Assembly: GCA_036567785.1 (NCBI GenBank)
Contig: DATCTV010000002.1
Span: 23,038 to 87,037, forward strand
Origin: Desulfomonilia bacterium
GTDB lineage: Bacteria; Desulfobacterota; Desulfomonilia; UBA1062
Length of the DNA: 64,000 nucleotides
Direction: 5' to 3'
Position numbers and translations under genes: made by a program. Within the stretch, counting starts at the first letter, position 1. Every line of letters begins with the position of its first letter. Under the pieces are notes generated by a model, which saw only the letters and a program-made list of their open reading frames with translations, was not told the origin of the DNA and did not search any database. Positions 1-36,360 of this stretch are shown one piece after another.

Positions 1-75
1 AAGACTTACTTTAAATTATAAAATTGGTCAGACCAATATTAGATATCCGAGTTGCCAGTCAGGAGGATATTATTT

Positions 76-510
76 ATGCAGTGGATGATCGAAAGCAATA
101 TTCCTTTGGATGAAACATTAAAGGATGCGGTACTTGACAAAATCGAGGAAGGCACATTTTCAATTGATGACCTGCCCGACTTTTTCGCGGTCTTTACACA
201 ACTCTGCAATTGCACCGAAGACATCCAGGACGAGGTCGAAGGCTTCAACAGAAAGTTCCAGTACAGGATCGACGGTAAGCCCTATGCCTGGATGAAGGTT
301 GAAAACCTTAAATTCTCAATGGGCTCCGGTGAAATTGATTCTCCGGATATAACGCTGGACATGAGTTCATCCCTTGCCGTCGGAATATTCTCGGGCGCAG
401 TGGACCCCACCGCCGCATACATGAACGGAGAACTCAAGGTTGACGGAATAATAAACGACGCCCTGGCCTTCAGAACCATCCTGGACATAGTTCAGGATGA
501 ACTCGAATAA
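76..510 (+). CDS. SCP2 (sterol-carrier) domain-like protein
   Basis: ATG at 76 is 9 nt after AGGAGG (61-66); the track ORF begins at a TTG at 52. The C-terminal '...NGELKVDGIINDALAFRTIL' resembles the SCP-2 sterol-transfer fold motif. The TAA stop lies just before the next RBS. Confidence 0.5.
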   Translation: MQWMIESNIPLDETLKDAVLDKIEEGTFSIDDLPDFFAVFTQLCNCTEDIQDEVEGFNRKFQYRIDGKPYAWMKVENLKFSMGSGEIDSPDITLDMSSSLAVGIFSGAVDPTAAYMNGELKVDGIINDALAFRTILDIVQDELE

Positions 511-527
511 TCTTTAAGGAGCCGGTT

Positions 528-2795
528 ATGAATCACGTCAGATGCGGAGTCATAGGAGGGGGCGGCGCCTGGAGCTTCCACAGCAATGCCTGCGCCGGAT
601 CCGAACTCATAAAATTCACGGCCATATACGACGTAAACATCAAGCAGGCCCGCAAGATGGCCAGGCGTTATCGCGCAAACGAAATGACAGCCTACGCCAA
701 TCTGGATGAGTTCCTCAAAAGTGATATAGATGCCGTACTTGTTCTCGTGCCGCACATGTATCACGAAGGTATTGTCGCTAAATGTGCCGCTGCCGGCAAA
801 CATATCCTCTGTGAAAAACCAATGGCCACGACTATCGAGGGCTGCGACATGATGATAGAAGCGGCGAAAAAGGCCGGAGTCAAGCTTATGATCGCCGAAA
901 ACCACCGCTTTCTGCCGGCGCACAGATACATTCATGACGCGGTTCAGCAGGGTCTCATCGGAGATGTTCTTCTCGTAAGGGCCTATGAAGGCGTAAACGA
1001 GATACCGGGCCTCAGCATGCCCGACTTCTGGAAGGGCGATCCTGTAAAGGCGGGCGGCGGTTCGTTCATAGATATGGCTGCTCACAAGTTTGCAGCAATC
1101 GAATGGATACTGAACGACAGGGTCGAATCCGTCACTGCGATGCTTGCAAAACAGGCGATTAATCTGCCGGAAAAGGCCGAAGACAATGCTCTGTCTATGG
1201 TGAGGTTTGCAGGCGGCCCCATAGCAGATATCACGGTAAGCTTCACGCAAATTACACCGCCGTTCAACAGCCTGGAAATTTACGGCACAAAAGGCACCAT
1301 ACTCGAAAACCACATGTGGGATAAGCCTGTAAGGATATTCTCTCACCACGAGGCAATGGGTGAAAACAAACAGAAATGGTTCGAACCCGACATTGAGCAC
1401 GAGCCTTTTCCCAGATATTACACCATATCGGTCAAATACGAGGACGAGCATTTCGCCAGATGTATCCTTGAAGACAGGGAGCCCGAGTTCACGCCCGAGG
1501 ATGCAAAGAGCGCGATTACCGGTGTGCTGATGGGATACCTCTCGGCTCATACGGGAAAGGCCGCCACCAGAAATGAACTGCATACGCTTGCAAAGGAGAA
1601 AGGCACCCTATCGCTTCTTGAAGACCTCAACCTGCATATTCCCATAAACAGAAACCTGCCGGAGGTGAAACGCATGAAATCCCTCGGATTCAACAAAAAA
1701 AGGGCTGCCGGGATAATGGAGAAGTACGATCTCGACCTCTTCATAGCCACGTCACCAGTCAACGTATACTATCTTACAGGGCTGCCCGTGCTGCATGCCG
1801 AGTCCAACCCCATCCTTTTCGCGCTCAATAACCAGTACCCCAGCATCGCCATGATGAAGCGCGAAGGTGACGTGATGCTTCTCAACTGGGGACTCTTCAG
1901 GAGTGTTGACGATATCTGCTGGGTGGCCGAGCACAGGGACATAAGTTCCCGGAAGGATGTCAGACGCGAGATATGGTCGAAGATAAAGAAATGGGGTCTC
2001 GTCGGCAAGCGTATCGGTGTCGAGTCGGTTGCACCCAAGTACATAACCGATCATATTGCATACAAGAACCCTGATTCGGAAATCGTCTCTGCCGACGGTG
2101 TAATGTTGGATCTGAGAATAATCAAGACCGAAGAGGAAATAGCCTGCATAGAAAAGGCGACCCTTGTTACCGAGAAGGCGATCACGGCCTGCATTGATGC
2201 CGCTGAAGTAGGCATGACGGACAACGATTTCCTCAAGATAGCACGCAGGGTGTTCGTTGACGAGGGTCTCGTCGGCTGGGACCATCTCACCATGAGCATA
2301 GGCGATTCCGATCCCGAACTCCCCGGCACCGGCAGGGTGGTTAAAAACGGCGACATAGTCCGCTTCGACTTCGGGGGAATTTACAAAGGCTATGTGGCTG
2401 ACGTGAACCGTCATGTAGTCATAGGCGGTGTTCCGGATGAAGCCGCCGGACTTGTTGAGAGGCTTATCCTTCTGCAGGAATATTTCGAAAAGCGCGTAAA
2501 ACCCGGGGTCAGCATAAAAGAGCTTAACGATGAGGCCATAGCCTATTACAAAACCATCAAGCCTGACGGGATGACGTTCGCAGTCGGGCACACCATAGGC
2601 CTTGAATGCGAAGAAACTCACCTTTTCGGTACCATGGGATTTCTTGACAGGACATATGAAAAGGGTATGGTCTTCGAAATAGAGGCATGGGAGAATTTCG
2701 GAAACACCCTCATAGGAGTAGAAGACTGCTACGAGGTTACCGGAGACGGGATAAGGAGAATGACAACGCTTGATAAGCGTATGGTCTCAAAGTAA
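528..2795 (+). CDS. Two-domain fusion: N-terminal Gfo/Idh/MocA-family NAD(P)-dependent oxidoreductase and C-terminal creatinase/prolidase-type M24 metallopeptidase
   Basis: RBS AAGGAG at 513-518, ATG at 528. N-terminus 'VRCGVIGGGGAWSFHSNA' is a Rossmann motif and '...EKP' is the Gfo/Idh/MocA signature. From about residue 380 comes a creatinase_N-like segment, then an M24 'pita-bread' domain. The metal ligands appear intact: 'FDFGGIYKGYVADVNRH', 'GHTIGLECEE', 'FEIEAWEN'. Confidence 0.7.
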   Translation: MNHVRCGVIGGGGAWSFHSNACAGSELIKFTAIYDVNIKQARKMARRYRANEMTAYANLDEFLKSDIDAVLVLVPHMYHEGIVAKCAAAGKHILCEKPMATTIEGCDMMIEAAKKAGVKLMIAENHRFLPAHRYIHDAVQQGLIGDVLLVRAYEGVNEIPGLSMPDFWKGDPVKAGGGSFIDMAAHKFAAIEWILNDRVESVTAMLAKQAINLPEKAEDNALSMVRFAGGPIADITVSFTQITPPFNSLEIYGTKGTILENHMWDKPVRIFSHHEAMGENKQKWFEPDIEHEPFPRYYTISVKYEDEHFARCILEDREPEFTPEDAKSAITGVLMGYLSAHTGKAATRNELHTLAKEKGTLSLLEDLNLHIPINRNLPEVKRMKSLGFNKKRAAGIMEKYDLDLFIATSPVNVYYLTGLPVLHAESNPILFALNNQYPSIAMMKREGDVMLLNWGLFRSVDDICWVAEHRDISSRKDVRREIWSKIKKWGLVGKRIGVESVAPKYITDHIAYKNPDSEIVSADGVMLDLRIIKTEEEIACIEKATLVTEKAITACIDAAEVGMTDNDFLKIARRVFVDEGLVGWDHLTMSIGDSDPELPGTGRVVKNGDIVRFDFGGIYKGYVADVNRHVVIGGVPDEAAGLVERLILLQEYFEKRVKPGVSIKELNDEAIAYYKTIKPDGMTFAVGHTIGLECEETHLFGTMGFLDRTYEKGMVFEIEAWENFGNTLIGVEDCYEVTGDGIRRMTTLDKRMVSK

Positions 2796-2864
2796 TCCGG
2801 CCTACGGAAGGCACCTTGCCTCAAAGAAACGTTATTGAACAGTTGAGATACAAGGAGAGGCTCA

Positions 2865-3998
2865 ATGTCAGGCGGATATGACATGACTTCGACATTAAAC
2901 CTTCTTCCTCTTGCGAAGAATTTCAAAAGGAAGCGCTTCAGCAGCTTCGACCGTACCGGAGGCAATCGGGACTGGATAGTCATAAATCCGGGACAATGCA
3001 CGACAATAGCCGACACTTCCGAAACAGGCTGCATCCGCCACATCTGGTGCACCATCGGCAGGGACAGCATCTCGAACAAGTACGACCGGGCATTTCTGCG
3101 CAGGATAATCATACGCATGTTCTGGGACGGGTCGGACAGACCTGCTGTGGAGGCGCCCATAGGCGACTTCTTCGGCATGGGCCACGGCATATGCAGAAAC
3201 TTCGTCTCCGCCCCTCTTCAGATGAGCCCGGAAAACGGCAGGGGGTTCAACTGCTTCTTTCCCATGCCCTTTTCAAATGGGGCCAGGATAGAAGTGGAAA
3301 ACCAGTGCACACATGAAATATCCCTTTATTATTATATAGACTGGGACTGCCATGACAGTCTCGATGAAAATGCGCTCAGATTTCATGCATCATGGAACCG
3401 TGAGCTGACAAAAGGAATATCTGATAAAGGCGTAGGCGGCATGGAGTTCCAGATGGATGGCGTCAATCTCTCCGATAGAGACAATTACCTCATCCTTGAG
3501 GCCGAAGGCACAGGCCATTATGTGGGTTGCAACATCAATATTCACAACCGCCGCGGCTCGTGGTTCTGGGACTGGCCAGGCGAAGGCGATGACATGATAG
3601 TTGTCGATAACGAGCCCTTCCCTCCCGCAATCCACGGCACAGGCACCGAAGACTATGTGAACATGGCCTTCTGCCCGACGCAATATTACTGTGCGCCGTA
3701 CCACGGGCTGATCATGGGCGGCGGGCCAAACTGGGGAGGAAAGATAACATACTACCGCTACCACGTCCTCGACCCCGTACCGTTTACGAAATCCATCCGG
3801 GTTTCCATTGAACACGGGCATGCGAACCGGAGGTCTGACGACTGGTCAAGCACTGCCTACTGGTATCAGAAGGGTACAGGCAATATCAAAAGGGTACCAG
3901 ACGTTACCAAGAGGCTGCCTCTCAAAAACCAGTATTCAGCGAAAAGGCTTTTCGGAGCCCTTATCATGTGGCCTATCTACCGGCTCTTCTTTTCATGA
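2865..3998 (+). CDS. DUF2961-like protein (glycoside hydrolase family 172-like), tentative
   Basis: RBS AAGGAGAGG at 2852-2860, ATG at 2865. A 377-aa soluble protein with acidic/aromatic-rich beta-type sequence ('WDWPGEGDD', 'HGTGTEDYV'), recognised from memory as DUF2961-like. The family assignment is not verifiable here. Confidence 0.4.
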   Translation: MSGGYDMTSTLNLLPLAKNFKRKRFSSFDRTGGNRDWIVINPGQCTTIADTSETGCIRHIWCTIGRDSISNKYDRAFLRRIIIRMFWDGSDRPAVEAPIGDFFGMGHGICRNFVSAPLQMSPENGRGFNCFFPMPFSNGARIEVENQCTHEISLYYYIDWDCHDSLDENALRFHASWNRELTKGISDKGVGGMEFQMDGVNLSDRDNYLILEAEGTGHYVGCNINIHNRRGSWFWDWPGEGDDMIVVDNEPFPPAIHGTGTEDYVNMAFCPTQYYCAPYHGLIMGGGPNWGGKITYYRYHVLDPVPFTKSIRVSIEHGHANRRSDDWSSTAYWYQKGTGNIKRVPDVTKRLPLKNQYSAKRLFGALIMWPIYRLFFS

Positions 3999-4008
3999 GG
4001 GAGAATTC

Positions 4009-6585
4009 ATGCGGGATGAAACGATCAGTCCACGCAACAAGCGATTGAAGGATATGATCCTCGATGCCCCGTACGAGATATGCATCGAAAGGGCTCGGTA
4101 CTACACAGAATCTTACAGAATGACCGAGGGGCTGCATCCGGCTATCCGGGCGGCAATGGCCTTCGAGCACACCCTCAAGAATATGAGCATATATATCCTC
4201 GATGATGAACAGATCGTCGGCAACCGAACATCAAAGCTTATCGCTGCCGCCATACCTGTCGAGAGAGGCGATATCAATACCGTGCTCGAACTCGATCTCG
4301 ACCTGCTCAGAAAAAGGGAAAGCCAGCCATATGTTATTTCAGATGATGAGGTCAGGGAACTGAGAGAGATCATCCTTCCCTACTGGAAAGGAAAGACTAT
4401 CAGGGTCGAAAGAAGGCGCAAAATGAAGGCTGCGGGCCTTATTTTCATCCCTTCGCTCAGGCCTTCGACACTGAAAGCTCTATATAAGAGCCTCGATTTC
4501 AGAAAGATGAGAAAAATTATCGGGCTCCCCGGAAGGAGTCTATCCGAGATTTCGGATACCCTCGTACGGATTCTGCCCCGGAAGATTGCGGATTTTAAGG
4601 TTCCGTTTTTTAATCCCGTATATGCCGTCAAGGGTCTGCGGGAGGTTCTGCTCAACAATCCTGCCTATGTCATGAATTCCTTCGATGTTCAGGGTCACTT
4701 GATACCTGGCCATAAAAACGTTCTCAGAGAAGGCTTCTCAGGTATCCGCAAAAGGGCTGAAAAGCGGCTTTCTGATTCCGAATTCAAGGGTGACAAAGAA
4801 GGCGCTAATTTTCTTAAGGCCGTAATAATCTGTTGTGATGCAATGAGGGACTTTGCACTGCGCTATTCGGTTGAGGCGGAAAGGCTCGCTGAAAACGCAA
4901 ATGAAGAAAGGAGAAGAGAGCTGCTCTCTATCGCAGAGAGATGCCGCCATGTCCCTTACCATCCGCCGCGGGACTTCAGGGAAGCATTACAAGCCTTCTG
5001 GCTCACTCATATAGCAGCCATAATAAGCTATGGCATGCCCGCCATACTTTCCACAGGCCGCCTTGATTCACATTTCGCATCCTTTTATGAAGAGGACCTT
5101 AAAAAAGGAGCTATTACAAAAGAGCAGGCGACAGAACTAATGGAAGAGCTGCTTATAAAACTAGCATGCAATCTGATATTGCTGCCTTACGGCGGCAAAG
5201 CTACGGGAAACGAACTGGGCTCCGACAACTGCACGCCGACCATAGGCGGGTTGAATCCTGACGGGACCGACGGTACAACGGAAATGACTTATGTCGTTCT
5301 AAATGCAGCCGCCAACGTCAAATCAATGGGCAACAGCTTCTCCATAAGGGTGAGCGAAAAATCACCGCCTGAATACTGGCAGAGAATCATCGACATGTAC
5401 AGGAACACGTCAGGACCTGCCCTGTTCAATGACGAGGTTGTAATCGAGGCGCTTACCCAAACAGGCATGAGAATTGAGGATGCCAGGGATTACGCAATCG
5501 TGGGCTGCGTAGAACCTACAGGCGACGGAAACACGTTCGGCTGCACCTCTGGCAATGACATATCGCTTGTTGCCGCGCTTGAGATGGCCCTCTTAAACGG
5601 CAGGCTCAGGATCATGGGCAAAAGGATCGGACCCGCCACAGGCGATCCTGTATGTTTCAGGACTTTCGATGACTTTTTTGAAGCCTATAAAAAACAGATG
5701 TCATTCATGATCTCGGTCATATCCAGGGCAGTAAACATCAAGGATGAATCGTACCGCAGTTCTCTTCCCTCGCCTTTCATATCGTGCACGCTGACCGGCT
5801 GTATTGAAAATGCCAGAGACATGACGTCAGGCGGCGCAAAATATACCTATTCATCAGTGAGCGGACGCGGCCTCGGCACGGCCGCGGATTCGCTCGCTGC
5901 AATAAAGCATTTTGTCTTCGACGAAAAGGTCTTTTCAATGGATGAGCTCGTCTCGATGCTTGACGTCAACTTCAGGGGTTTCGAAAAGGAACGGGCAATG
6001 CTTAAAAACAGAGGGCCGAGATTCGGTGCCGACATTGATGACGCCGATTTTATTGCTGCTGAGATAAGCTCATATTTCTGCACTGAAGTGGGAAAACAGA
6101 AAAACATCTTCGGCACAATGTTCAGGCCGGGCTTCTTTTCTTACGGTATGCACGTCCTGGACGGTCTTTTCCTGGGTGCTACACCTGACGGGCGGCTTTC
6201 AGGCGAACCTGTCAGCAACAGCTTTTCGCCTTCCAACGGCTCTGAAACGAAAGGCCCGACCGCGGTCATGAAATCCGCCTCGAAAATGAACCATACCCTT
6301 ATTTCAAACGGCAATGCGCTCAACGTCAAATTCCTTCCGTCGATGATCACAGGCAGAGAGCGTGCCGACAGGATGATCTCATTGTTCAAAGGCTATTTCA
6401 GACTTGGCGGCATGGAGATCTCCCCCAACTTCATCTCCAGCGAAATGCTGAGAGAAGCACAGATGAGACCTGAGATGTACCGGGACCTTGTCGTGAGAGT
6501 TTCGGGCTATTCAGCATTCTTTACCGATCTCGGCAGGCCGCTTCAGGACGAGATAATAAGCCGCACGGAATTCGGCGGGCTTTAG
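4009..6585 (+). CDS. Glycyl radical enzyme (PFL2/glycerol-dehydratase-like family), GRE1
   Basis: ATG at 4009 is preceded by GAGGGAG; the track ORF 3808..6585 carries a spurious 5' extension that overlaps the upstream gene. The C-terminal glycyl-radical motif 'RVSGYSAFF' has its Gly codon at 6505-6507. The active-site motif 'VGCVEPTGDG' has its Cys codon at 5506-5508, with Glu at +2 as in 1,2-eliminase-type GREs. Length 858 aa. Confidence 0.85.
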   Translation: MRDETISPRNKRLKDMILDAPYEICIERARYYTESYRMTEGLHPAIRAAMAFEHTLKNMSIYILDDEQIVGNRTSKLIAAAIPVERGDINTVLELDLDLLRKRESQPYVISDDEVRELREIILPYWKGKTIRVERRRKMKAAGLIFIPSLRPSTLKALYKSLDFRKMRKIIGLPGRSLSEISDTLVRILPRKIADFKVPFFNPVYAVKGLREVLLNNPAYVMNSFDVQGHLIPGHKNVLREGFSGIRKRAEKRLSDSEFKGDKEGANFLKAVIICCDAMRDFALRYSVEAERLAENANEERRRELLSIAERCRHVPYHPPRDFREALQAFWLTHIAAIISYGMPAILSTGRLDSHFASFYEEDLKKGAITKEQATELMEELLIKLACNLILLPYGGKATGNELGSDNCTPTIGGLNPDGTDGTTEMTYVVLNAAANVKSMGNSFSIRVSEKSPPEYWQRIIDMYRNTSGPALFNDEVVIEALTQTGMRIEDARDYAIVGCVEPTGDGNTFGCTSGNDISLVAALEMALLNGRLRIMGKRIGPATGDPVCFRTFDDFFEAYKKQMSFMISVISRAVNIKDESYRSSLPSPFISCTLTGCIENARDMTSGGAKYTYSSVSGRGLGTAADSLAAIKHFVFDEKVFSMDELVSMLDVNFRGFEKERAMLKNRGPRFGADIDDADFIAAEISSYFCTEVGKQKNIFGTMFRPGFFSYGMHVLDGLFLGATPDGRLSGEPVSNSFSPSNGSETKGPTAVMKSASKMNHTLISNGNALNVKFLPSMITGRERADRMISLFKGYFRLGGMEISPNFISSEMLREAQMRPEMYRDLVVRVSGYSAFFTDLGRPLQDEIISRTEFGGL

Positions 6586-6586
6586 C

Positions 6587-7288
6587 ATGAAGAGAATCTT
6601 GTTTTTTCCCTTATTACTCCTGTTTCTGTCTTGTCCGGTATTGACTTACTCAGCGGACCTTGACCCGCAGAAGGGCGACACCGGATGGATACTGAAATCG
6701 AATGGAAAGGACTACAAGACCTATTACAGAAAAAGAGAAGGCTCCTCCACTCAGGAAGTCCTTCTTGTAGGGATGACGGACAGAAGACCGGAAAAGGTAA
6801 TCGCCGCAATAACGGACTACGGACATTTTCCCGAATTCATGCCTTATGTGAAATACACCAGGCTCGTCCATTCGGAACGCAAATCCGAGGATGTCTTGAT
6901 CAATTATGTTTTTACATACCTTGATGTACCCATACCTTTTGTTTCATCAAGGTTCTATAACCTGAGATATACCGACGTTTACAATTATAAGGGCATACCC
7001 GGCATGTTCAGGTCAGACTGGGTGCTCGAAAAAGGTCCTTACAGGAAACTACCGACCGACCCTGACATCAGGGATTTCCTGAGCGATCCCGAAAGTGCAG
7101 TCGAGACGACGTTCAATCAGGGCTATTTCCTGATCGAGCCCGTGGACGAACTTCTCAGGACGCGAATCACATATTATGTCTGGACAAATCCCGGCGGCAG
7201 CCTCCCGCCATCGGCAGTAAATATTGCAAACACGGTGGCCCTGCCCGGGCTGCTTGAGGCGATTACGAAAAGGGCATCAAAATATTGA
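6587..7288 (+). CDS. Secreted START/SRPBCC (Bet v1-like) lipid-binding domain protein
   Basis: ATG at 6587, 1 nt after the GRE1 stop, which suggests translational coupling. N-terminal signal peptide 'ILFFPLLLLFLSCPVLTYSA'. The C-terminal '...YYVWTNPGGSLPPSAVNIAN...' resembles the START-domain C-terminus. Confidence 0.55.
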   Translation: MKRILFFPLLLLFLSCPVLTYSADLDPQKGDTGWILKSNGKDYKTYYRKREGSSTQEVLLVGMTDRRPEKVIAAITDYGHFPEFMPYVKYTRLVHSERKSEDVLINYVFTYLDVPIPFVSSRFYNLRYTDVYNYKGIPGMFRSDWVLEKGPYRKLPTDPDIRDFLSDPESAVETTFNQGYFLIEPVDELLRTRITYYVWTNPGGSLPPSAVNIANTVALPGLLEAITKRASKY

Positions 7289-7365
7289 TCAAAGACATCA
7301 GTATTTCTTCGAACCTCATCCTTTCAGTCGAAGAGCAATCAGATAAATTTTTAATTTTTTAGATA

Positions 7366-7406
7366 TTGACTTTGTATATTTTATTTCTATATAGATTCTA
7401 TATAGC
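7366..7406 (+). promoter_or_regulatory. Putative sigma70 promoter with tandem palindromic operator upstream of padR
   Basis: TTGACT at 7366-7371, then 17 nt, then TATATA at 7389-7394. The -10 lies inside a perfect palindrome TCTATATAGA (7386-7395), which repeats immediately in tandem (7397-7405). This is the usual geometry of an autoregulatory operator. Confidence 0.45.
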
Positions 7407-7432
7407 TAAGACTATTTAAAATCGGAGGGTTG

Positions 7433-7990
7433 ATGTCGCTGAATTATGCAGTTCTGGGTCTTCTCCAATACCGTGACATGCACGGATACCGCATCAAGGA
7501 ACATCTTGAAAATAATTTCGGTCATATGTGGTCGGTCAACTTCGGCCAGATTTATCCCATATTGAAAGACCTTGAGAAGAAGGGACTCATCAGGATGGCC
7601 AAAGTATCATCTGCAAGCAATCAGGGACCTCAACGCAAACTTTATTCAATAACTGAAAAAGGCCGCGAGGAATTTTTAAAATGGCTCAAGGAGCCCGCTG
7701 ACAAATCAATGCTTCTGCGTGATCCTTTTCTTCTGAAATTCGCATTTTTCGGGTTCGGCGGGCCTGAAGATGCATTGAGAATAATCGACAATCAGATTGC
7801 ATCCTATGAAGCTCAACTTGAAAGGCGTATGAGCAATTCCATAAGATGGGATAACCAGGGGCCGTACGTCAAGCTCCTGTCCAACCTCGGTGTCACATTT
7901 AATGAAATGTATCTCGAATGGCTGAAAGCGGCCAGAAAGCAGATCGAAGAAAACATATCAGATAAGGATTATTTTGCATTGGGTATTTGA
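7433..7990 (+). CDS. PadR-family transcriptional regulator
   Basis: GGAGGG at 7424-7429, ATG at 7433; the track starts at a TTG at 7430. The N-terminal wHTH 'LNYAVLGLLQYRDMHGYRIKEHLE...GQIYPILKDLEKKGLI' is PadR-typical. Confidence 0.8.
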   Translation: MSLNYAVLGLLQYRDMHGYRIKEHLENNFGHMWSVNFGQIYPILKDLEKKGLIRMAKVSSASNQGPQRKLYSITEKGREEFLKWLKEPADKSMLLRDPFLLKFAFFGFGGPEDALRIIDNQIASYEAQLERRMSNSIRWDNQGPYVKLLSNLGVTFNEMYLEWLKAARKQIEENISDKDYFALGI

Positions 7991-8146
7991 AATCTCCCTG
8001 AAGCAAAAATCATTCGTGATGGTACATCTCATCAGGGAGCCACGGAAATACGGGAAGAACGTGCCCCAAACATAAGCCTCAACGAAAATGCAGCAGATGA
8101 CGCTTTAAATGAATAGAGAGTCATAAAGCACGGAAGGAGGTTTAAT

Positions 8147-9142
8147 ATGGAGTTTTCCGGTATCACCCTTGTAACGGGAGCTGCGGGTTTCATGGGCAGC
8201 CACCTTGTTGAATACCTCGCTAAAAAGGGCGTCCGGGTCCGTGCCAGCGCAAGACCCAGGAAAGACCTTTCCTTTTTTGAGAATCTGGGCGTTGAATACG
8301 TCGCCGCAGACCTTACAAAACCAGAGACAATACCGCCACTGTTCAAGGGAGGTGTGGACCGTATTTTTCACCTTGGCGCCATCTGCAATTTCTCGACACC
8401 TTATGAAAAGCTTTATCCGACCAATGTGCTAGGTGTCGATCTTATTACGACGGAAGCGGCCAAGGCCGGCGTAAAATGCTATGTCCATGTCGGTTCCACA
8501 AGTGTTTACGGATATTACAAGGGTACCCCTTTCAGGGAAGACGGGCCGAGAGACCCTCAGGACAGTTACGGAAGGAGCAAGCGCGACGGTGAAGACGTAA
8601 TCTGGCGCAAGATTAAAGAGGGCTTCCCCGCAATCATAACAAGACCCTGCACGGTTTACGGCCCCCGCTGCAATGACGGAGCGGGCAAGGCCTTTTCCAG
8701 ACCCACATCGATCACGGCAATACCCGGAAGCGGCCGCCAGCTGCTTTCAAATATCAGAGCCGAAGATGTCGCAGCTGCAGTAGAACACCTTTCGCACATG
8801 GAAAGCGCCATAGGGCAAGCCTACAATATTGCGGAAGACACCTATCCCTCCATAGGCGAGGCGCTTACGCTCGCTGCTGAAACATTCGGCACGAAGCCCC
8901 CAAGCCTGCACCTGCCCCTGTGGCTGATAAAGGCGGTTGCCAGAATCGACGGTGCTGTTTCTGCAAAAAAAGGCAAAATCCCGGACCTTGAATATGATGC
9001 GGTCAAATACCTTTATTATGATTATGTCGTGGATAACTCAAAGCTCAAGGCAACGGGCTATAAGCTTATTTATCCGGATTTCAGACTGTCAATGGCTCAG
9101 ATGAAGGAATGGTACCGGAATCAATCCGGATCCGCCAGATAA
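8147..9142 (+). CDS. NAD-dependent epimerase/dehydratase family protein (extended SDR)
   Basis: RBS GGAGG at 8135-8139, ATG at 8147. Motif 'ITLVTGAAGFMGSHLVEYL' is the GxxGxxG of the extended-SDR epimerase family. Confidence 0.75.
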   Translation: MEFSGITLVTGAAGFMGSHLVEYLAKKGVRVRASARPRKDLSFFENLGVEYVAADLTKPETIPPLFKGGVDRIFHLGAICNFSTPYEKLYPTNVLGVDLITTEAAKAGVKCYVHVGSTSVYGYYKGTPFREDGPRDPQDSYGRSKRDGEDVIWRKIKEGFPAIITRPCTVYGPRCNDGAGKAFSRPTSITAIPGSGRQLLSNIRAEDVAAAVEHLSHMESAIGQAYNIAEDTYPSIGEALTLAAETFGTKPPSLHLPLWLIKAVARIDGAVSAKKGKIPDLEYDAVKYLYYDYVVDNSKLKATGYKLIYPDFRLSMAQMKEWYRNQSGSAR

Positions 9143-9161
9143 ATTAACAAGGGAGGTTATA

Positions 9162-9983
9162 ATGGGAAATGTTGTTGTAATAACAGGTCTTGCAGACGGA
9201 ATGGGAAGGCATGTCGCAAAATTGCTTGCAGAAAAGGATTACACAATAGCCGGTTTTGATATGGACGCAAAAGGAATCGAATCTCTCAAGAAAGAACTCG
9301 GCGACAAGCACTACCTTATCACGCTCGATATCACCGACAGAGCAGGCATACTTGATTTCAGGGATGAGGTACTCAAAAGATACGGCATGGTCGATACGGT
9401 ACTCTCAAATGTCGGCATCGGATTTTTCGGCCCGTTCGAAGAGGTAAGCCTTGAAAAGGCGCTTAAATGCCTCGAAATAAATGTGATAGGTGCAGCCGCA
9501 ATCTTTCAGGCGTTCATTCCCTCGATGAGAAAGCGGGGATGCGGTAAACTTATTGCAATGTCTTCCCTTGTCGGACGCATACCCTTCCCCTTTGAATCCA
9601 TTTACTCGGCAAGCAAATTTGCAGTGACCGGGATGGTGCTTTCACTGAAGCACGAAGTCGAACCTTTCGGCATTAGTGTAGGTCTTATAGAGCCCGCGCA
9701 GGTCTCCACCACGTTTGCCGCAAAGATCCATTTCCTTCCGCCTGAAGGTTCGCCTTACCGCGACCGGGTCAGGAGGTTCATCGATCGCGACAACGAATTG
9801 ATTAAAACCGCCCCTACTCCTGAATTTGCTGCAAAAAAGATAGTAAAGGTCGTAACATCTGACAAGCCGAAGATATTCAACCAGATAGACGCCGGCAGCG
9901 GGTTCCTTCAGATGCTGAACCGTTTCCTGCCGGTAAATATCAGGGATAAGATACTGGTAAGCTACATGCATATAAAAGTTTGA
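9162..9983 (+). CDS. Short-chain dehydrogenase/reductase (classical SDR)
   Basis: RBS GGGAGG, ATG at 9162. 'VVVITGLADGMGRH' is the cofactor-binding site; 'YSASKFAV' is the catalytic YxxxK. Confidence 0.75.
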   Translation: MGNVVVITGLADGMGRHVAKLLAEKDYTIAGFDMDAKGIESLKKELGDKHYLITLDITDRAGILDFRDEVLKRYGMVDTVLSNVGIGFFGPFEEVSLEKALKCLEINVIGAAAIFQAFIPSMRKRGCGKLIAMSSLVGRIPFPFESIYSASKFAVTGMVLSLKHEVEPFGISVGLIEPAQVSTTFAAKIHFLPPEGSPYRDRVRRFIDRDNELIKTAPTPEFAAKKIVKVVTSDKPKIFNQIDAGSGFLQMLNRFLPVNIRDKILVSYMHIKV

Positions 9984-10020
9984 AAAAACACTCTCACACA
10001 GATTTATTAAGGGGGACGAC

Positions 10021-12399
10021 ATGCGAAATACAAACGCGGCATTAAAACTTGAAGAAACGAGGGTCCAGAGGCTGAGAAACAGGATCATACTGGCGCCCCA
10101 GGAGGTCTGCATAGAACGGGCAAGGTATCTGACCGAATCCATGCGCAGAAACTGGGACCGCCACCCCCTTGAGCGCATCAGTCTTGCCCTTGAAAACATA
10201 CTCAGGAATATCAGCGTCATCATAAGGGAAGATGAAATCATAGTGGGGTGCCGGACAAAGAAACTCAAAGGCGCACCTTTATTCCCCGAAAACAAGTCCC
10301 GCTGGATTGAAGGCGACCTTGACGCGTTCGACCAGAGACAGTTGCAGCGAGCCCTTATCACCGAAGCCGAAAAGAACGAAATGCGTGAGAGCATCCTTCC
10401 CTTCTGGAAGGGCAGATGCGTCGAAGATGTCATGGAAAGTGTCATGCCTGAAGACGTCATGGAAGACATGGACAAATATATCTTCACAATGATGCTCGAG
10501 ATCAATTACGGGATAGGACACTTTACCATGAACCATGAAAAGGTCCTGGCAAAAGGGCTTAAAGGCATAATTGCAGAGGCCGCGGAAAAGTTTGATTCAT
10601 TGAGCCTGGATGAAAGGAAATCGGAAAAAGGGATATTCTATGAGTCCATGATACGTTCGATGAAGGCGGCTATCCTTTTTGCCAACCGCTACAGCATACT
10701 GGCAAGGGAGATGTCCGCACAAGAGACCGACAAGGAGCGTGCTGAAGAACTACGGGAAATAGCCCGTGTATGCAGCCGGGTTCCGGAAAATCCTGCGCAG
10801 ACATTCCATGAGGCCGTGCAAAGCGTATATTTCATCCATCTGATCGCGCAGATCGAATCAGGCGGCAACTCAATCTCTCTGGGACGCATCGACCAGATAC
10901 TGTATCCTTATTACATGAAGGACAAAGAGGCCGGAAATATAACGGCCCAGCGTGCTCGGGAACTCCTGTCTCTGCTATTTATTAAGACCAACGAGATATG
11001 GAATGTACTGGAAGAGGCATTCATCCCCGGAGGTGAAGGCACTGAAGGCAAGACTACTCAGAACGTGACCGTGGGCGGTATGGGCATCGACGGAAATGAC
11101 GCCACGAACGAACTCAGTATGATAGGTCTTGATGCATATGCAGACATCAGGACTGTTCAGCCGAATTTCGGGGTCAGGATATGCAGAAAAACACCGAAGC
11201 CGTTTTTCAAAAAAGCCATCGATTATGCCAGGGACGGTGTTCTCATGCATTTCTTCAATGACGAGGCCATTGTCGAGAACCTTGTCCTCGCGGGACATAC
11301 CCTTGAAGACGCCCGAAATTATGGAGTAGTCGGGTGTCTTGAGCCGAGTGCGTCCGGCAAGAATTTCGGCTCCACCTTCGCTGTGCAGTTCAACGGTGTA
11401 AAATGCGTAGAACTAGCCCTTTCCAACGGTGTAGACAATATATTCGGTTATCAATCCGGGCCCGAGACAGGAGACCCGGCACAATTCAAAAGCTTCGACG
11501 ATGTATGGAATGCATATGACACGCAGATGAACCATTTCATTAATCAGATGGTGAAAGGCATGGCCGTGCTTGACAAATCGATTGCCGAAAACGTGCCCTC
11601 TCCTTTTGCATCGGCCATGGTCGAAGGTCCGATGGACAAGGGGATCGACCTCACAAAGGGAGGCGCCGTCTATAACTCGACAGGCGTTCAGCTCATGGGT
11701 TTCGCCAATACGGCAGACAGCTTATATTCCATCAAAAAGGCTATATTCGAAGACAGGAAATATACCATCGGGCAGCTCTCGGAATGGCTTTCCACTGACT
11801 GGCAGGATGCCGAACCGAAGCGCAGCTATTTCCTGAAAAAGATCAAAAAATACGGCAACGACATCGACGAGGTGGATGAAATGGCGATCAGGGTTGCGAA
11901 TCATTTCTGCGACACGCTCAAAAAATATAAGAATTACAGGGGCGGCTCCTTCTGGCCCGGGATATTCTCGGTCGGGTTCCATATAAGCTTCGGTGCATTC
12001 TCGGCTGCTTCACCTGATGGAAGACATGCAGGCGATGTGCTCGGCAACGGCATTACCCCTACAACCGGAAACGCCGTTTCTGGACCTACCGCCATGATGA
12101 ATTCAGTGGCGAAACTCCCGCTTAAAAGAATATTCAACGGCGCGAACCTGAACATCCGTTTCCAGGGCAAAAAGATAGGCACCGAAAATCTGCTTTCTCT
12201 TGTGAGGACATATTTCAACAGGGGCGGAATGCAGGTCCAGTTCAACATGGTCGATTCCGCAACACTCAGAAAGGCGCAGAAGAACCCGGAAAAATATGCT
12301 GACCTGTTTGTCAGGGTAAGCGGCTATTCAGCTGAGTTTACGGGCCTTTCCGAAATCGCCCAGAACGAGATCATAAGCAGGACAGAATACGATCTTTAA
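10021..12399 (+). CDS. Glycyl radical enzyme (PFL2/glycerol-dehydratase-like family), GRE2
   Basis: RBS AAGGGGG, ATG at 10021. C-terminal 'RVSGYSAEF' with Gly codon at 12322-12324. Active-site 'VGCLEPSASG' with Cys codon at 11335-11337 and Glu at +2. The N-terminus 'VCIERARYLTES' is paralogous to GRE1 'ICIERARYYTES'. Length 792 aa. Confidence 0.85.
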   Translation: MRNTNAALKLEETRVQRLRNRIILAPQEVCIERARYLTESMRRNWDRHPLERISLALENILRNISVIIREDEIIVGCRTKKLKGAPLFPENKSRWIEGDLDAFDQRQLQRALITEAEKNEMRESILPFWKGRCVEDVMESVMPEDVMEDMDKYIFTMMLEINYGIGHFTMNHEKVLAKGLKGIIAEAAEKFDSLSLDERKSEKGIFYESMIRSMKAAILFANRYSILAREMSAQETDKERAEELREIARVCSRVPENPAQTFHEAVQSVYFIHLIAQIESGGNSISLGRIDQILYPYYMKDKEAGNITAQRARELLSLLFIKTNEIWNVLEEAFIPGGEGTEGKTTQNVTVGGMGIDGNDATNELSMIGLDAYADIRTVQPNFGVRICRKTPKPFFKKAIDYARDGVLMHFFNDEAIVENLVLAGHTLEDARNYGVVGCLEPSASGKNFGSTFAVQFNGVKCVELALSNGVDNIFGYQSGPETGDPAQFKSFDDVWNAYDTQMNHFINQMVKGMAVLDKSIAENVPSPFASAMVEGPMDKGIDLTKGGAVYNSTGVQLMGFANTADSLYSIKKAIFEDRKYTIGQLSEWLSTDWQDAEPKRSYFLKKIKKYGNDIDEVDEMAIRVANHFCDTLKKYKNYRGGSFWPGIFSVGFHISFGAFSAASPDGRHAGDVLGNGITPTTGNAVSGPTAMMNSVAKLPLKRIFNGANLNIRFQGKKIGTENLLSLVRTYFNRGGMQVQFNMVDSATLRKAQKNPEKYADLFVRVSGYSAEFTGLSEIAQNEIISRTEYDL

Positions 12400-12417
12400 A
12401 TCAACCGGAGTAAAATT

Positions 12418-13353
12418 ATGAGCAAGGTAATGACCATAAAGGACGCCGTCGAGAAAAATATAAATAACGGCGATTTTCTTTTCATAGGGGGCTACGTATG
12501 CAGGCCTCCTTTCTCTGCAGTCCATGAAATAATCCGGCAGCATAAAACAGATTTGACGATTGCCCGAAGCAACGCCGCCGATGACTTTGACATGCTGATA
12601 GGCGCCGGCTGCGTCAAGAGGTTCATATCGACGTTCATCTCGTTAGGGCTTTACGGGCTGGCCAGATGCTACAGGCGCTCGATAGAAAAAGGCATCCCGA
12701 ACAAGATTGAACTCGAGGAATACACGAATCTCTCTCTTCCCATGATGTTCATGGCCGGAGCAATGGGCATGCCGTTCGTTCCTGTGAAGGACATGGTGGG
12801 AACCGATATGATGAAGATAAGATCTTTCATGGGCGAAAACAAATACAGGATGATAGATTCGCCTTTTGACGGAAAACCTGTCATGCTTGTCCCTGCGCTT
12901 AATCCCGATGTCGCGATAATCCATGTCCAGCAGGCCGATGAAAACGGCAACGCACAGATGTGGGGCATAGGCGGCGATTGCAAATGGGGGGCGAATGCGG
13001 CAAAAAAGGTCATAGTAACCTGTGAGAGGATTATCAGCCGTGAAACCATCGGCAAAGACCCGTCAAGGACAATAGTCCCCGCATTCAAGGTAGCAGCGGT
13101 CTGTGAGGAGCCGTTCGGCGCACACCCCGGTTATACGCCGGGATTCTATGACGTGGACTTCTCATTCGGCTATGTCTATCAGCAGGCAACAAACACCGTC
13201 GAAGGTTTTCAGTCATTCCTTGACGAATGGGTTTTTGGTGTCAAGGACAGAAACGAGTATATCCAGCATTATATCAACAGGTTCGGTTTCGCCCAGTATA
13301 AAAAGCTTCAGGCCAGATTCGATTACGGTTATCCCGTAAGTTATTCGTATTAG
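12418..13353 (+). CDS. Family-I CoA-transferase subunit A (glutaconate CoA-transferase GctA-like)
   Basis: ATG at 12418 after GGAG. Length and sequence fit the 3-oxoacid/glutaconate CoA-transferase alpha subunit ('FIGGYVCRPPFSAVHEIIRQ', 'VPALNPDVAIIHVQQADENGN'). Confidence 0.7.
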   Translation: MSKVMTIKDAVEKNINNGDFLFIGGYVCRPPFSAVHEIIRQHKTDLTIARSNAADDFDMLIGAGCVKRFISTFISLGLYGLARCYRRSIEKGIPNKIELEEYTNLSLPMMFMAGAMGMPFVPVKDMVGTDMMKIRSFMGENKYRMIDSPFDGKPVMLVPALNPDVAIIHVQQADENGNAQMWGIGGDCKWGANAAKKVIVTCERIISRETIGKDPSRTIVPAFKVAAVCEEPFGAHPGYTPGFYDVDFSFGYVYQQATNTVEGFQSFLDEWVFGVKDRNEYIQHYINRFGFAQYKKLQARFDYGYPVSYSY

Positions 13354-13364
13354 GAGAATGAATT

Positions 13365-14165
13365 ATGAGTGAACATCCGAATGATTATATAAAGCCTGAA
13401 CTCATGGCATGCTGTGGAGCACGTCATATCAGGGACAATGATGTGGTTATAGTCGGCACCGGATTTCCGACGATGGCCGCCAATATTGCAAAACACACGC
13501 ATGCGCCCAATGCAACCATGATGCAGGAATCAGGTGTTTTTGATGCACGCCCGGCAAGGCCAGCGCTTTCAGTCGGCGACCCGTGTCTCAATCCCGGGGC
13601 TGCAATGGTTGGGGGGCTTATCGAAGTGATGGGCATGTTCCTCCAGGGCGGATGGGTTGACTGCGGATTTCTTTCAGGGGCACAGGTGGACAAGTTCGGC
13701 AACATCAATACCACGGTAATCGGCGACTATAATAAACCCAAAAGCAGGCTTCCCGGTTCAGGAGGAGCCAATCCGATAGGAGCGCTTGCGAAAAGGGTCC
13801 TTATCATTGCACTTCATGATAAAAGAAGCCTTGCCGAACGCGTTGATTTCATAACGACACCAGGCTATCTGGATGGTCCCGGGGCACGCGAGAAATGGGG
13901 GCTGCCTCCTGACACAGGTCCCGAGGTCATAGTCACGAACAAGGCCGTGATGCATTTCGATAAAGACACAAAAGAGGCGTACCTTACGAGCTGGCATCCG
14001 GACACAAACATCGACGAGGTTGTAAGCCTCACTCCATGGAAGCTCAAGGTGTCGGATGACGCACACGAAACCGAGCCGCCCACGGCTGAAGAGCTGAGGG
14101 TTCTTAGGGAGGTCCTCGATCCGTTTCGAATGATCAAGATATATGAAAAACGAGGCTACATCTGA
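13365..14165 (+). CDS. Family-I CoA-transferase subunit B (GctB-like)
   Basis: RBS TAGGAG, ATG at 13365. 'SGAQVDKFGNINTTVIG...GSGGANPIG' is the beta-subunit signature region of the two-subunit CoA-transferases. Confidence 0.7.
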   Translation: MSEHPNDYIKPELMACCGARHIRDNDVVIVGTGFPTMAANIAKHTHAPNATMMQESGVFDARPARPALSVGDPCLNPGAAMVGGLIEVMGMFLQGGWVDCGFLSGAQVDKFGNINTTVIGDYNKPKSRLPGSGGANPIGALAKRVLIIALHDKRSLAERVDFITTPGYLDGPGAREKWGLPPDTGPEVIVTNKAVMHFDKDTKEAYLTSWHPDTNIDEVVSLTPWKLKVSDDAHETEPPTAEELRVLREVLDPFRMIKIYEKRGYI

Positions 14166-14337
14166 TGCGAATCTCTGGAACTTTGCATTTCATTGTCGCT
14201 CCTAGTCTCGTCATTGCAGCGTACGTCATGTACGCCTCATTCCTCGACTTCGTCGCTCCTCGAAATGCTTTGTTCCAAAGCTCCGCACATTTTAATAATA
14301 AAACAAGTCTTTAGCTGAATGTTTATGGGAGGGGAAA

Positions 14338-15705: not shown

Positions 15706-15721
15706 TAAAAACAAGGAGTAC

Positions 15722-29495: not shown

Positions 29496-29579
29496 TTATA
29501 TTGCAGTCTTTCATGAGCCGCATCTGAGACAGAGTCATTATCTTCAAAATAATTGAATTTCAGCGTTAAAGGAGATTCC

Positions 29580-30278
29580 GTGCCCAAGATCTCGGATGCA
29601 AGAAGGCAGGAGACACTCGATAAGATCGAACGGTCGGCATCTGAGCTTTTCAGCAAACAGGGATTTCACAACACCCAGGTCATGGACATAGTAAAGGCCG
29701 TGGGCATTTCGGCGGGCACCTTCTATTTATACTTCAAGGACAAGCGCGATCTTTTCAAAAAGATAACCGGCGGCAGTTTCAGAAATTTGCGAGACTATCT
29801 TATAGACCTCAGGCGTCCTGTAAACATATGGGAACGCTCCGAACGGGAACTGAAACTCAAGGAAACATATACGGCTCTATTCGATTACGTGGATTCCAAT
29901 CCTGAACTCATTCTCATGCTTCTCAGGGGAAGCTATGGTGTAGATGAAGATTTTGACGCCAGTTCATGGTTTTCCTTCAACAGCTGGGCGCATGACCTTG
30001 CCGAGGATGTGCAGAACTGGCTTGACCTGGGCATCATATCGGGAATCGATCCCATGATATTCGGTCATGCGGTAGTCGGTATGGCCATGCAGGTCATACA
30101 CAGCTATATCGTGGAAAAACAGTTTACGCGGGAAAAGGCCATAGATGCAATAATCCGCATGAACATGTCCATGTTCGACACCTACATGACCAGTGCGGGC
30201 AGAGACCTTCTCCGAAAGTCCGGTCCGCATGCCGCGGTAGTTGATACCGAAAAGAGTTCCCCTTCCAGCGTGAAATGA
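29580..30278 (+). CDS. TetR-family transcriptional regulator
   Basis: AAAGGAG at 29568-29574, GTG at 29580; the track's ATG at 29553 lacks an RBS. HTH 'FSKQGFHNTQVMDIVKAVGISAGTFYLYFKDKRDLF'. Confidence 0.75.
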   Translation: MPKISDARRQETLDKIERSASELFSKQGFHNTQVMDIVKAVGISAGTFYLYFKDKRDLFKKITGGSFRNLRDYLIDLRRPVNIWERSERELKLKETYTALFDYVDSNPELILMLLRGSYGVDEDFDASSWFSFNSWAHDLAEDVQNWLDLGIISGIDPMIFGHAVVGMAMQVIHSYIVEKQFTREKAIDAIIRMNMSMFDTYMTSAGRDLLRKSGPHAAVVDTEKSSPSSVK

Positions 30279-30324
30279 AGACGAAAATATAAAAATGGTA
30301 TTTTAAAAATATCAGGGAGGTTGC

Positions 30325-31557: not shown

Positions 31558-31559
31558 TT

Positions 31560-36348: not shown

Positions 36349-36360
36349 GGAGGACCAGGA

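Follow-up and report, generated by a model that had tools for sequence, protein, structure and literature searches.

The 64,000-nucleotide stretch of Desulfomonilia DNA analysed here (the window; contig DATCTV010000002.1, positions 23,038 to 87,037) contains near its start one operon of five same-strand genes (76–7288), in which a glycyl radical enzyme (GRE), referred to as GRE1, is encoded between a GH172 (DUF2961) glycosidase and a START-fold protein, behind an SCP2 gene and a gene fusing a Gfo/Idh/MocA oxidoreductase to an M24 peptidase. All of these parts belong to known superfamilies. What is new is a GRE family that stands apart by a signature of its own and lacks an adjacent activase, the recruitment of that family into a GH172/START operon, and a conserved SCP2-Gfo-M24 module. 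Our leading reading, which we hold tentatively, is that the operon breaks down an alpha-D-furanoside, of D-arabinofuranoside type and probably amphipathic, with GRE1 acting on a sugar-derived metabolite within that pathway. Many GRE clades are without an assigned function (review PMC13450708), and a literature search combining GRE with GH172, BKACE (beta-keto acid cleavage enzyme), Gfo, M24 and SCP2 with one another, and GRE with sugar and gene neighbourhood, returned nothing relevant, so that none of the new elements was found there. An earlier reading of this DNA from sequence only had called the arrangement undescribed, which holds for the literature searched, although the fusion itself is common in sequence databases.

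The features of the locus are as follows (aa, amino acids):

76–510, + strand: first gene of the operon, SCP2 (sterol-carrier-type lipid-binding) protein (Pfam SCP2, E 9.1e-10)
528–2795, + strand: Gfo/Idh/MocA-M24 fusion, 755 aa (Pfam)
2865–3998, + strand: GH172 (DUF2961) protein, 377 aa, predicted retaining alpha-D-furanosidase, cytoplasmic (Pfam E 6.7e-79, PDB matches)
4009–6585, + strand: GRE1, 858 aa, of the CXE (eliminase/isomerase-like) type (Pfam, PDB comparison, NCBIfam, signature table)
4546–4620, + strand: 25-aa insertion in GRE1 (E180–V204), confined to the GH172-linked subclade (alignment of GRE1 and P0002 with 831-aa members)
4000–6675, + strand: block present or absent relative to locus L091, comprising the GRE1 gene and the signal-peptide-coding start of the START gene (blastn)
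6587–7288, + strand: exported START-fold (SRPBCC) protein, 233 aa, predicted signal peptide aa 1–23 (6587–6655) (AlphaFold2 model, Foldseek)
7430–7990, + strand: PadR-family regulator between the GRE1 operon and the GRE2 operon (Pfam PadR, E 3.7e-21)

Operon structure and related loci

Domains were annotated with Pfam on all open reading frames (ORFs) of at least 150 aa in the window, and specific functions were assessed with the curated NCBIfam equivalog models, each score being read against the cut-off of its model. The features listed by the sequence-only reading are real, and a codon check confirmed the two catalytic codons that it had named in GRE1, the glycine codon at 6505–6507 (RVSGY) and the cysteine codon at 5506–5508 (GCVEP). 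The GRE1 gene stood, with a corrected start: the mechanically delimited ORF (3808–6585) opens at a TTG (3808) inside the GH172 gene, and the true start is the ATG at 4009, which has GAGGGAG 5 nt upstream and gives a protein of 858 aa, equal in length to P0001, the identical database cluster. An exact look-up of the window GRE1 itself returned no entry. The SCP2 gene is an operon member that had not been listed. Its mechanical ORF spans 52–510, and the gene call in a near-identical contig (L085) begins at the ATG equivalent to 76; since the gene 5' of SCP2 in that contig lies on the opposite strand, SCP2 is the first gene of the operon. The gaps between the five genes are 17, 69, 10 and 1 nt, the last two indicating that GRE1 is probably co-transcribed with the genes on either side. 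The PadR gene is flanked by gaps of 142 and 157 nt. Promoter and terminator counts in a scan of positions 1–8400 were no higher than in shuffles, and no riboswitch was detected in an Rfam scan of L085, L091 and L005 or in a sensitive scan of the region 5' of SCP2.

The arrangement is beyond chance, as the whole of it recurs in L085 at 97–100% identity and the GH172/GRE1/START triad recurs in two more distant loci. The contig encoding P0002, a GRE 77% identical to GRE1, has the order FucI-like, GH172, GRE, START, Amidohydro_2. In a Desulfomonilia metagenome-assembled genome (L005; identity 78% for the GRE, 87% for GH172 and 69–74% for START) the order is FucI-like, GH172, YdjC, GH30, ADC, DUF362, ADC, DUF3108-like, GRE, START and Amidohydro_2, continuing with a 149-aa ORF without a Pfam match, a thiamine pyrophosphate enzyme, PadR, an epimerase, a short-chain dehydrogenase/reductase (SDR) and GRE2, the second GRE of the window. 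Both loci have the FucI-like gene upstream of GH172 and Amidohydro_2 downstream.

A further locus, L091, is a close relative of the window (84–86% nucleotide identity in the flanks, with the products of six genes more than 90% identical) without GRE1. Its genes run fusion, major facilitator superfamily (MFS) transporter, FGGY kinase, FucI-like, GH172 and START, then PadR, epimerase, SDR and GRE2. By blastn, L091 7126–8273 corresponds to window positions 2852–3999 and L091 8399–9014 to 6676–7291; compared with L091, the window has an extra 2.7-kb block (4000–6675) and is without a 4.8-kb MFS/FGGY/FucI block, the latter being a further difference between the strains, distinct from the GRE1 block. 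This makes GRE1 a presence/absence cassette, in a locus where the fusion, GH172 and the START gene stay constant. The operon is thus a mosaic of three separately conserved modules, namely SCP2 with the Gfo-M24 fusion, GH172 with the START gene, and the GRE1 cassette. The PadR gene of L091 (14422–14978) is split into two ORFs of 72 and 131 aa by an apparent frameshift or assembly error; the window copy is intact.

GRE1 and the characterised glycyl radical enzymes

GRE1 matched the Pfam families PFL-like (E 3.7e-167) and Gly_radical (E 3.2e-27). Its glycine loop VRVSGYS holds Gly833 (codon GGC) and its cysteine loop VGCVEP holds Cys500 (codon TGC); other key positions are His230 (codon 4696), Glu502 (5512) and an FGCTSGND motif (5536–5559). 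Cys500 and Glu502 make up a CXE motif (C500-V-E502), which all GRE eliminases and isomerases retain (review PMC13450708). The strongest PDB matches were to HypD (E 3.5e-141), CutC (9.7e-141), glycerol dehydratase (GD; 6.8e-136) and propanediol dehydratase (PD; 2e-126), with 37% identity to HypD over 624 aligned residues. Some 95 residues of GRE1 (aa 133–227) did not align to these structures, and the 25-aa insertion falls inside this overlong N-terminal region. His230, invariant in the family, aligns with GD His164 and HypD His160, and in CutC the aligned residue is Asp216 (D. alaskensis numbering). In GRE dehydratases that cleave C–O bonds, the histidine at this position is the general acid that protonates or positions the leaving hydroxyl group.

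No equivalog or subfamily cut-off was reached, which makes GRE1 a CXE-type GRE without assignable specificity. The scores were 565.4 bits for HypD (NF043068; cut-off 1100), 466.9 bits for CutC (TIGR04394; 1050), 502 for HpfG (1000) and 587 bits for the subfamily model TIGR01774 (678). The pyruvate formate-lyase (PFL) model TIGR01255 gave 120 bits against a cut-off of 994, and the single cysteine of GRE1 is followed by Val-Glu, with no Cys-Cys pair. The active-site comparison with HypD and GD, which the sequence-only reading had proposed as a check, found the specificity residues of both enzymes replaced. Asp278 of HypD, an essential and strictly conserved catalytic acid/base (PMC7077986), is Ala345 in GRE1. 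Ser334, Phe340, Tyr450 and Thr645 of HypD are replaced by Asn401, Asn407, Asp517 and Tyr712, and the sole hydroxyproline-binding residue kept is Asp339 (Asp406 in GRE1). A function as a HypD-type hydroxyproline dehydratase is ruled out by these residues together with the curated model scores. Similarly, the glycerol-binding residues of GD, His281/Ser282 and Asp447 (PDB 1R9D), correspond to Ala345/Ile346 and Ser514.

Family A and its sister clade

A database search with GRE1 yielded 748 proteins at E <=1e-50, most of them about 831 aa long and 50–60% identical to GRE1. The family occurs in Desulfobacterota, Myxococcota, Planctomycetota, Hydrogenedentota, Nitrospirota, Chloroflexota and Asgard archaea (Jord-, Atabey-, Frey- and Hodarchaeia). 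Signatures were analysed on an alignment of 81 loci. Family A, which includes GRE1 (at least 44% identity to it), is nearly invariant at Q228-G-H230, E402-L-G-x-D406, F510-G-C-T-S-G-N-D517 and R706-P-x-F-F-S-Y-G-x-H715. Clade B (36–43% identity) has H402, [FY]GATGG[TS]KY and K706...N715 instead, with a radical-SAM activase immediately downstream and a conserved gene of about 200 aa upstream. These uncharacterised sister GREs (L054 and L056–L084, e.g. L066 8428–11909) come mostly from Myxococcota, Bacteroidota and Promethearchaeota. Beside 52 family-A loci there was no clear activase, only three weak radical-SAM-like matches (E 1.7e-07 to 1.5e-04), and the 64-kb window contained none by Pfam, by tblastn or by a hidden Markov model (HMM) built from 17 activases.

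Compared with the stand-alone members of family A, GRE1 shows three conservative changes at the signature-table positions and the 25-aa insertion that it shares with P0002, and is otherwise the same. Such near-identical signature residues suggest that the substrate is probably common to the whole family. Among the Asgard members, the Atabeyarchaeia and Freyarchaeia chromosomes (L032 and L033, 10001–12493) encode GREs that are 50–52% identical to GRE1 and have GCVEP rather than Cys-Cys. A published reconstruction names these genes 'pflD, pyruvate formate-lyase' and infers formate production (PMC11291895), a label that is unlikely in view of the CXE loop and the score on the PFL model. The point is a broader one, as family A is large and highly conserved (50–68% identity across phyla and domains) and is routinely annotated 'formate C-acetyltransferase'; metabolic reconstructions that rest on the PFL label are probably wrong.

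Few other family-A genes have a carbohydrate-linked context. One is L003 (10001–15004, Hydrogenedentota), where the GRE is directly followed by an 816-aa glycosidase with NPCBM, weak GH31, melibiase and GH36C matches. Within 8 kb, the GRE has an M24 gene in L011, L038 and L072 and a Gfo gene in L018, L038, L055 and L072. An orthologous linkage of these separate genes to GRE1 relatives was rejected, since their identity to the fusion domains is only about 25% and a count of 3–4 in about 75 loci is near chance.

A rival possibility is that GRE1 is a short-chain diol dehydratase. On a route of the D-arabinose/L-fucose type, an aldolase would yield glycolaldehyde or lactaldehyde, reduction would give ethylene glycol or 1,2-propanediol, and GRE1 would convert the diol to an aldehyde. 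The FucI-like and FGGY genes of the related loci are consistent with such a route, as are the CXE motif and His230, found likewise in GD and PD, and the alcohol dehydrogenase (ADH) genes near two homologues, an Fe-ADH gene (FucO/DhaT-type) upstream of that of Desulfatibacillum alkenivorans and a Zn-ADH gene beside that of Phycisphaerae. However, the GD residues His281/Ser282 and Asp447 are replaced, GRE1 scores under the cut-off of even the TIGR01774 subfamily, and GRE2 of the same window is far nearer to GD (E 2.6e-176). Neither an aldolase gene nor microcompartment genes were found in the window. Moreover, the invariant polar or charged residues E402, D406, T513, S514, N516, D517 and R706 would suit a larger polar substrate, and we consider a diol dehydratase distinctly unlikely.

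The GH172 and START-fold proteins

The DUF2961 assignment, for which the sequence-only reading had asked for an HMM search, was secured by a full-length match to PF11175 (265 bits, E 6.7e-79, profile positions 1–235 of 235). PDB matches were 4kq7 (E 1.4e-75), alphaFFase1 (7v1v, E 1.2e-69) and the Dysgonomonas gadei enzyme (8ah3, E 5.9e-65). Judged by alignment to alphaFFase1, the catalytic apparatus is complete: the acid/base E270 corresponds to E240 (codon 3582–3584), the nucleophile E291 to E262 (codon 3648–3650), and the -1 subsite residues W267, D292 and Y187 are retained. The protein has no signal peptide. Described GH172 members are exo-alpha-D-arabinofuranosidases or alpha-D-fructofuranosidases (PMC8605356, PMC10115798, PMC10509167). 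In alphaFFase1, the +1 subsite residue Lys147 is needed for inulobiose and difructose anhydride I (DFA I); the segment holding it is deleted in the window protein, which is therefore probably not a DFA I synthase/hydrolase, and Glu85, the other +1 subsite residue, lies outside the aligned region.

The START gene begins 1 nt after the stop codon of GRE1, the coupling that had been noted from the sequence. As to its earlier designation as a signal-peptide START-domain gene, Pfam alone gave only a sub-threshold Polyketide_cyc match (16.7 bits against 23.4), and the support came from structure prediction. An AlphaFold2 model of the 233-aa protein, built on an alignment of 17 homologues, had a pLDDT of 83.9 and a pTM of 0.80, and its first 41 PDB matches in Foldseek were all START lipid-transfer domains (E about 4e-11, probability 1.00), headed by 3qsz, STARD10, STARD4 and CERT (TM 0.61–0.85). 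A START/SRPBCC helix-grip fold is thus supported by the predicted structure, and the distant homologues P0255 and P0257 carry PF03364. The N-terminus is hydrophobic and followed by a conserved A|[YLF]DLSP site, with no conserved Cys in the alignment, suggesting a periplasmic protein processed by signal peptidase I. A metagenome scan for the family found 6 short loci only, one of them beside a HigB/HigA-like pair and none with added GRE context. In L094 (492–2017) a homologue of 79% identity stands alone beside a HigB/HigA-like toxin-antitoxin pair, which shows that the START gene also exists outside GH172 clusters. In L089 and L090, more distant homologues are arranged as tandem pairs that follow an SDR and a sigma-54 two-component system.

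SCP2 and the Gfo/Idh/MocA-M24 fusion

The 755-aa fusion was as the sequence-only reading had described it, with an intact creatinase/prolidase domain. The Gfo part (aa 4–344) matched PF01408 (E 4.9e-26), PF22725 (E 8.4e-23) and PF02894 (E 2.9e-14), and the M24 part (aa 391–738) comprised Creatinase_N (391–532, E 9e-09) and Peptidase_M24 (540–738, E 2e-24). The top PDB match of the Gfo domain was 1,5-anhydro-D-fructose reductase (2glx, E 3e-28), closely followed by aldose oxidoreductases, DgpA and inositol dehydrogenases; no NCBIfam equivalog cut-off was reached (IolG 151 bits against 355). For the M24 domain, prolidases were the top PDB matches. All five metal ligands are in place, D614, D625, H688, E719 and E732 (codons 2367, 2400, 2589, 2682 and 2721) aligning with D209, D220, H284, E313 and E327, the metal ligands of Pyrococcus furiosus prolidase (1pv9). 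The second His of the GHxxGLxxHE motif is replaced by Glu, and the domain scored below every curated equivalog (PepQ NF040821, 69.2 bits against 630; ectoine hydrolase, 72.8 against 575).

More than 150 full-length homologues of the fusion were found (53–99% identity), in Spirochaetota, Chloroflexota, Actinomycetota, Anaeromyxobacter, Lachnospiraceae and Promethearchaeota. Whether the two domains also occur as separate neighbouring genes, a Rosetta-stone link suggested by the sequence-only reading, had a negative answer, the Gfo and M24 domains being essentially always fused; such a link exists for SCP2 instead, which is fused to about a third of the homologues. About one third of the homologues are 870–950 aa long and 17 carry a recorded SCP2 domain, which in L087 and L088 is N-terminal and 48% identical to the stand-alone SCP2 of the window. 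Across SCP2 genes and N-terminal SCP2 domains attached to Gfo-M24 fusions elsewhere, identity to the window protein is 48–60%. Being fused in those loci and encoded by a separate upstream gene here, SCP2 is linked to the fusion, and SCP2, Gfo/Idh/MocA and M24 form a conserved functional module.

In four independent lineages the module has kept the context SCP2, Gfo/M24, BKACE, SDR (GntR, NAD-epimerase, PfkB/MFS). The operon, with GntR/FCD, NAD-epimerase, optional PfkB and MFS genes after the SDR, is found at L086 3280–11972, L087 10001–15362, L092 9380–14607 and L102 9481–17033, and looks like a complete undescribed catabolic pathway present in several phyla. The epimerase and SDR of the window are only 26–31% identical to their counterparts in this operon, too low for orthology, which was rejected.

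The prolidase-like domain had suggested to the sequence-only reading a salvage of hydroxyproline peptides, with the M24 peptidase freeing hydroxyproline for a HypD-like GRE1. HypD is nominally the top PDB and NCBIfam equivalog match of GRE1, and the M24 domain is metal-intact with prolidases as its best structural matches. However, GD and CutC scored almost as well as HypD, Asp278 and four hydroxyproline-binding residues are replaced, and both the HypD and the PepQ models remained far under their cut-offs. In addition, in other loci the fusion family never has a GRE as its neighbour, and the window was found to contain no pyrroline-5-carboxylate reductase or proline-pathway genes. We regard this route as hardly credible.

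Proposed pathway and its weighing

For the catabolism of an alpha-D-furanoside, the parts could act together as follows. START in the periplasm and SCP2 in the cytoplasm would handle the hydrophobic part of the substrate, GH172 would free the furanose, and the Gfo domain would oxidise or reduce the sugar. GRE1, after activation in trans by an activase encoded outside the 64-kb window, would then cleave a C–O bond by radical chemistry, through dehydration or ring opening, in a hydroxylated metabolite that is small, polar and derived from sugar. In this way it may replace or supplement, without using ATP, the isomerase-kinase route (FucI-like, FGGY kinase, MFS) of the close relative L091. That two lipid-carrier folds are encoded suggests an amphipathic substrate.

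The type of sugar is indicated by the related loci. FucI and FucK of E. coli (L-fucose isomerase and L-fuculokinase) accept D-arabinose and D-ribulose as well, and some Amidohydro_2 members are L-fucono/D-arabinono-lactonases. The accessory genes of L091, L005 and the P0002 contig accordingly fit a pathway for a D-arabinose- or L-fucose-configured sugar. From sequence and gene context, a sugar-derived metabolite is thus the favoured candidate substrate of GRE1: the anhydro-sugar or polyol alternative of the sequence-only reading gained contextual support from the intact GH172, the sugar genes of related loci and the CXE motif with His230.

Several observations weigh against this assignment. 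The strongest is that family A is context-free elsewhere, so that the sugar link could be lineage-specific or incidental: among 140 ORFs flanking the 52 family-A loci, from many phyla, no Pfam family occurred more than 3 times. Without recurrent neighbours, family A is a stand-alone gene, and with a signature common to all its members its substrate is probably a general metabolite, linked to sugar in one lineage only. In L005, 7 kb of other genes lie between GH172 and GRE1. The canonical SCP2-Gfo-M24 contexts contain neither a GRE nor GH172, and no sugar-pathway role is assignable to the M24 domain. Finally, no transporter, kinase or activase gene was found in the window operon (Pfam, tblastn, activase HMM).

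The main rival reading is an incidental juxtaposition. GRE1 would then perform the same general reaction as its stand-alone relatives, perhaps on a short diol or an amino alcohol, having entered a recombination-prone locus as a cassette-like insertion. The shared signature residues and the family's want of conserved neighbours or an adjacent activase speak for this, and so do the presence or absence of GRE1 between strains at 85% nucleotide identity, two further indels in the same 15 kb, and the closest stand-alone relative P0004 (60% identity), which has no carbohydrate genes nearby. It is less easily reconciled with the tight packing of GRE1 or with the GRE1-START pair, which has been kept in three loci diverged to 77–78% GRE identity and always within a GH172 cluster; the subclade-specific insertion, too, suggests adaptation. 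Overall, we hold an incidental insertion to be only slightly less likely than the furanoside pathway.

Returning to the furanoside pathway, a more far-reaching proposal is that GRE1 and its relatives of about 831 aa constitute a new GRE reaction class, performing radical C–O cleavage on an unphosphorylated pentose- or hexose-derived metabolite (e.g. a pentitol, aldonate or anhydro-alditol) with a shared, non-adjacent activase. This is a speculative and, at present, unlikely proposal. If true, anaerobes would possess an alternative to the isomerase-kinase route that does not depend on ATP, and the Desulfomonilia operon would offer the first hint from genomics as to the substrate. An otherwise context-free GRE inside a furanosidase operon, together with the isomerase/kinase/transporter block of L091, which has no GRE1, provides a testable hint of the substrate class. 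The value of the locus lies mainly in this enzyme-discovery lead and in the correction of 'PFL' annotations.

The GRE2 operon and the remainder of the window

Behind the PadR gene lies the GRE2 operon (8147–16891), encoding an NAD-epimerase/3beta-HSD-like protein, an SDR, GRE2, CoA-transferase subunits A and B, an MmgE/PrpD protein and an acyl-CoA dehydrogenase. GRE2 (792 aa) has a GCLEP loop, its best PDB match is glycerol dehydratase (1r8w, E 2.6e-176), and no activase is adjacent. The coupling of a GRE to CoA-transferase, PrpD and acyl-CoA dehydrogenase genes is unusual. The gene order is kept in L082 (49–79% identity, without GRE1) and also in L005 and L091; L082 and L091 keep PadR, epimerase, SDR and GRE2 as a group but have no GRE1.

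Taken together, 52–16891 might be read as one island for glycolipid or lipid catabolism, in which the lipid is carried by SCP2 and START and loses a furanosyl head group to GH172, the polar remnant of that head group is the target of GRE1, and the GRE2 operon degrades the acyl or isoprenoid part. The two lipid-carrier folds, the CoA-transferase and acyl-CoA dehydrogenase genes after GRE2, and the adjacency of both operons in the window, L005 and L091 are in keeping with this. The epimerase has HpnA and SdmB as its best NCBIfam matches and the SDR matches KdsR, but all of these lipid-enzyme matches are far under their cut-offs. L082, moreover, has the GRE2 operon without GRE1, GH172 or the START gene, and the module of SCP2, Gfo and M24 is found elsewhere with MFS, PfkB and GntR, a sugar-acid-like context. 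A joint lipid island is therefore a long shot.

Further downstream, 33264–46566 holds two sets of HGD-D/BcrAD-type genes (2-hydroxyacyl-CoA dehydratase or class I benzoyl-CoA reductase-like), accompanied by genes for a CdhC-like protein, a CbiA/MinD-type ATPase, a ferredoxin-domain protein and a 4HBT thioesterase, and preceded by a TetR gene and two acyl-CoA dehydrogenase-like genes (29553–32834). This region probably serves anaerobic metabolism of aromatic or alicyclic CoA esters. A low-GC segment (52000–56000; 0.37–0.40 against about 0.50 elsewhere) encodes, all on the minus strand, a methyltransferase, a 401-aa protein without a Pfam match and an outer-membrane phospholipase A1, and may be horizontally acquired. 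Three very large surface-type proteins are encoded at the end of the window (55964–63991, minus strand). One has 722 aa and five PASTA repeats; the others, 832 and at least 1065 aa long, are composed of K319L-like PKD/Big_9 repeats.

Comparison with known systems

HypD (6VXC/6VXE), the best PDB match, has in common with GRE1 the fold, the RVxG loop, the GCVE(P/T) loop with the CXE glutamate, and the histidine; GRE1 differs in being about 67 residues longer, within aa 133–227, and in having no adjacent activase. GD and PD (1R8W, 5I2A) share the CXE motif and the general-acid histidine and score near HypD, but their activase, microcompartment and aldehyde dehydrogenase context is not matched at GRE1, and GRE2 of the same window is the closer relative of GD. 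A precedent for C–O cleavage of a sugar derivative by a CXE-type GRE is given by YbiW/PflD (8ID7, 8ID0, 8YJO), which open the ring of 1,5-anhydroglucitol-6-phosphate and 1,5-anhydromannitol-6-phosphate. These enzymes are more distant from GRE1 (E 1e-91 to 5e-125), and the surroundings of the cysteine loop differ, reading GCVELSIPGRTYGLH in PflD and GCVEPTGDGNTFGCTSGND in GRE1. They have adjacent activases, phosphotransferase system and kinase genes and phosphorylated substrates, whereas the window operon has no kinase.

With alphaFFase1 of Bifidobacterium dentium (7V1V) and the exo-alpha-D-arabinofuranosidases of Dysgonomonas gadei, Mycobacterium and Microbacterium, the window GH172 shares a full-length DUF2961 match, the nucleophile, the acid/base Glu and the Trp/Asp/Tyr of the -1 subsite. 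Other enzymes of D-arabinan breakdown, the endo-acting GH183 and DUF4185, were not seen, and a position next to a GRE and a START gene has not been described for known GH172 enzymes. The helix-grip fold of the START protein is that of START/SRPBCC lipid-transfer domains (Xanthomonas 3QSZ, STARD4, STARD10 and CERT), at only 10–20% identity; it differs from these in its predicted cleavable signal peptide and in the tiny size of its family (18 database clusters). The fusion, finally, is a full-length member of the uncharacterised SCP2-Gfo/Idh/MocA-M24 proteins, which databases name 'predicted dehydrogenase/Xaa-Pro aminopeptidase/putative sterol carrier protein'. It has its SCP2 partner directly upstream, and the canonical neighbours of the module (BKACE, SDR, GntR, NAD-epimerase, PfkB and MFS) are replaced in the window by GH172, GRE1 and the START gene.

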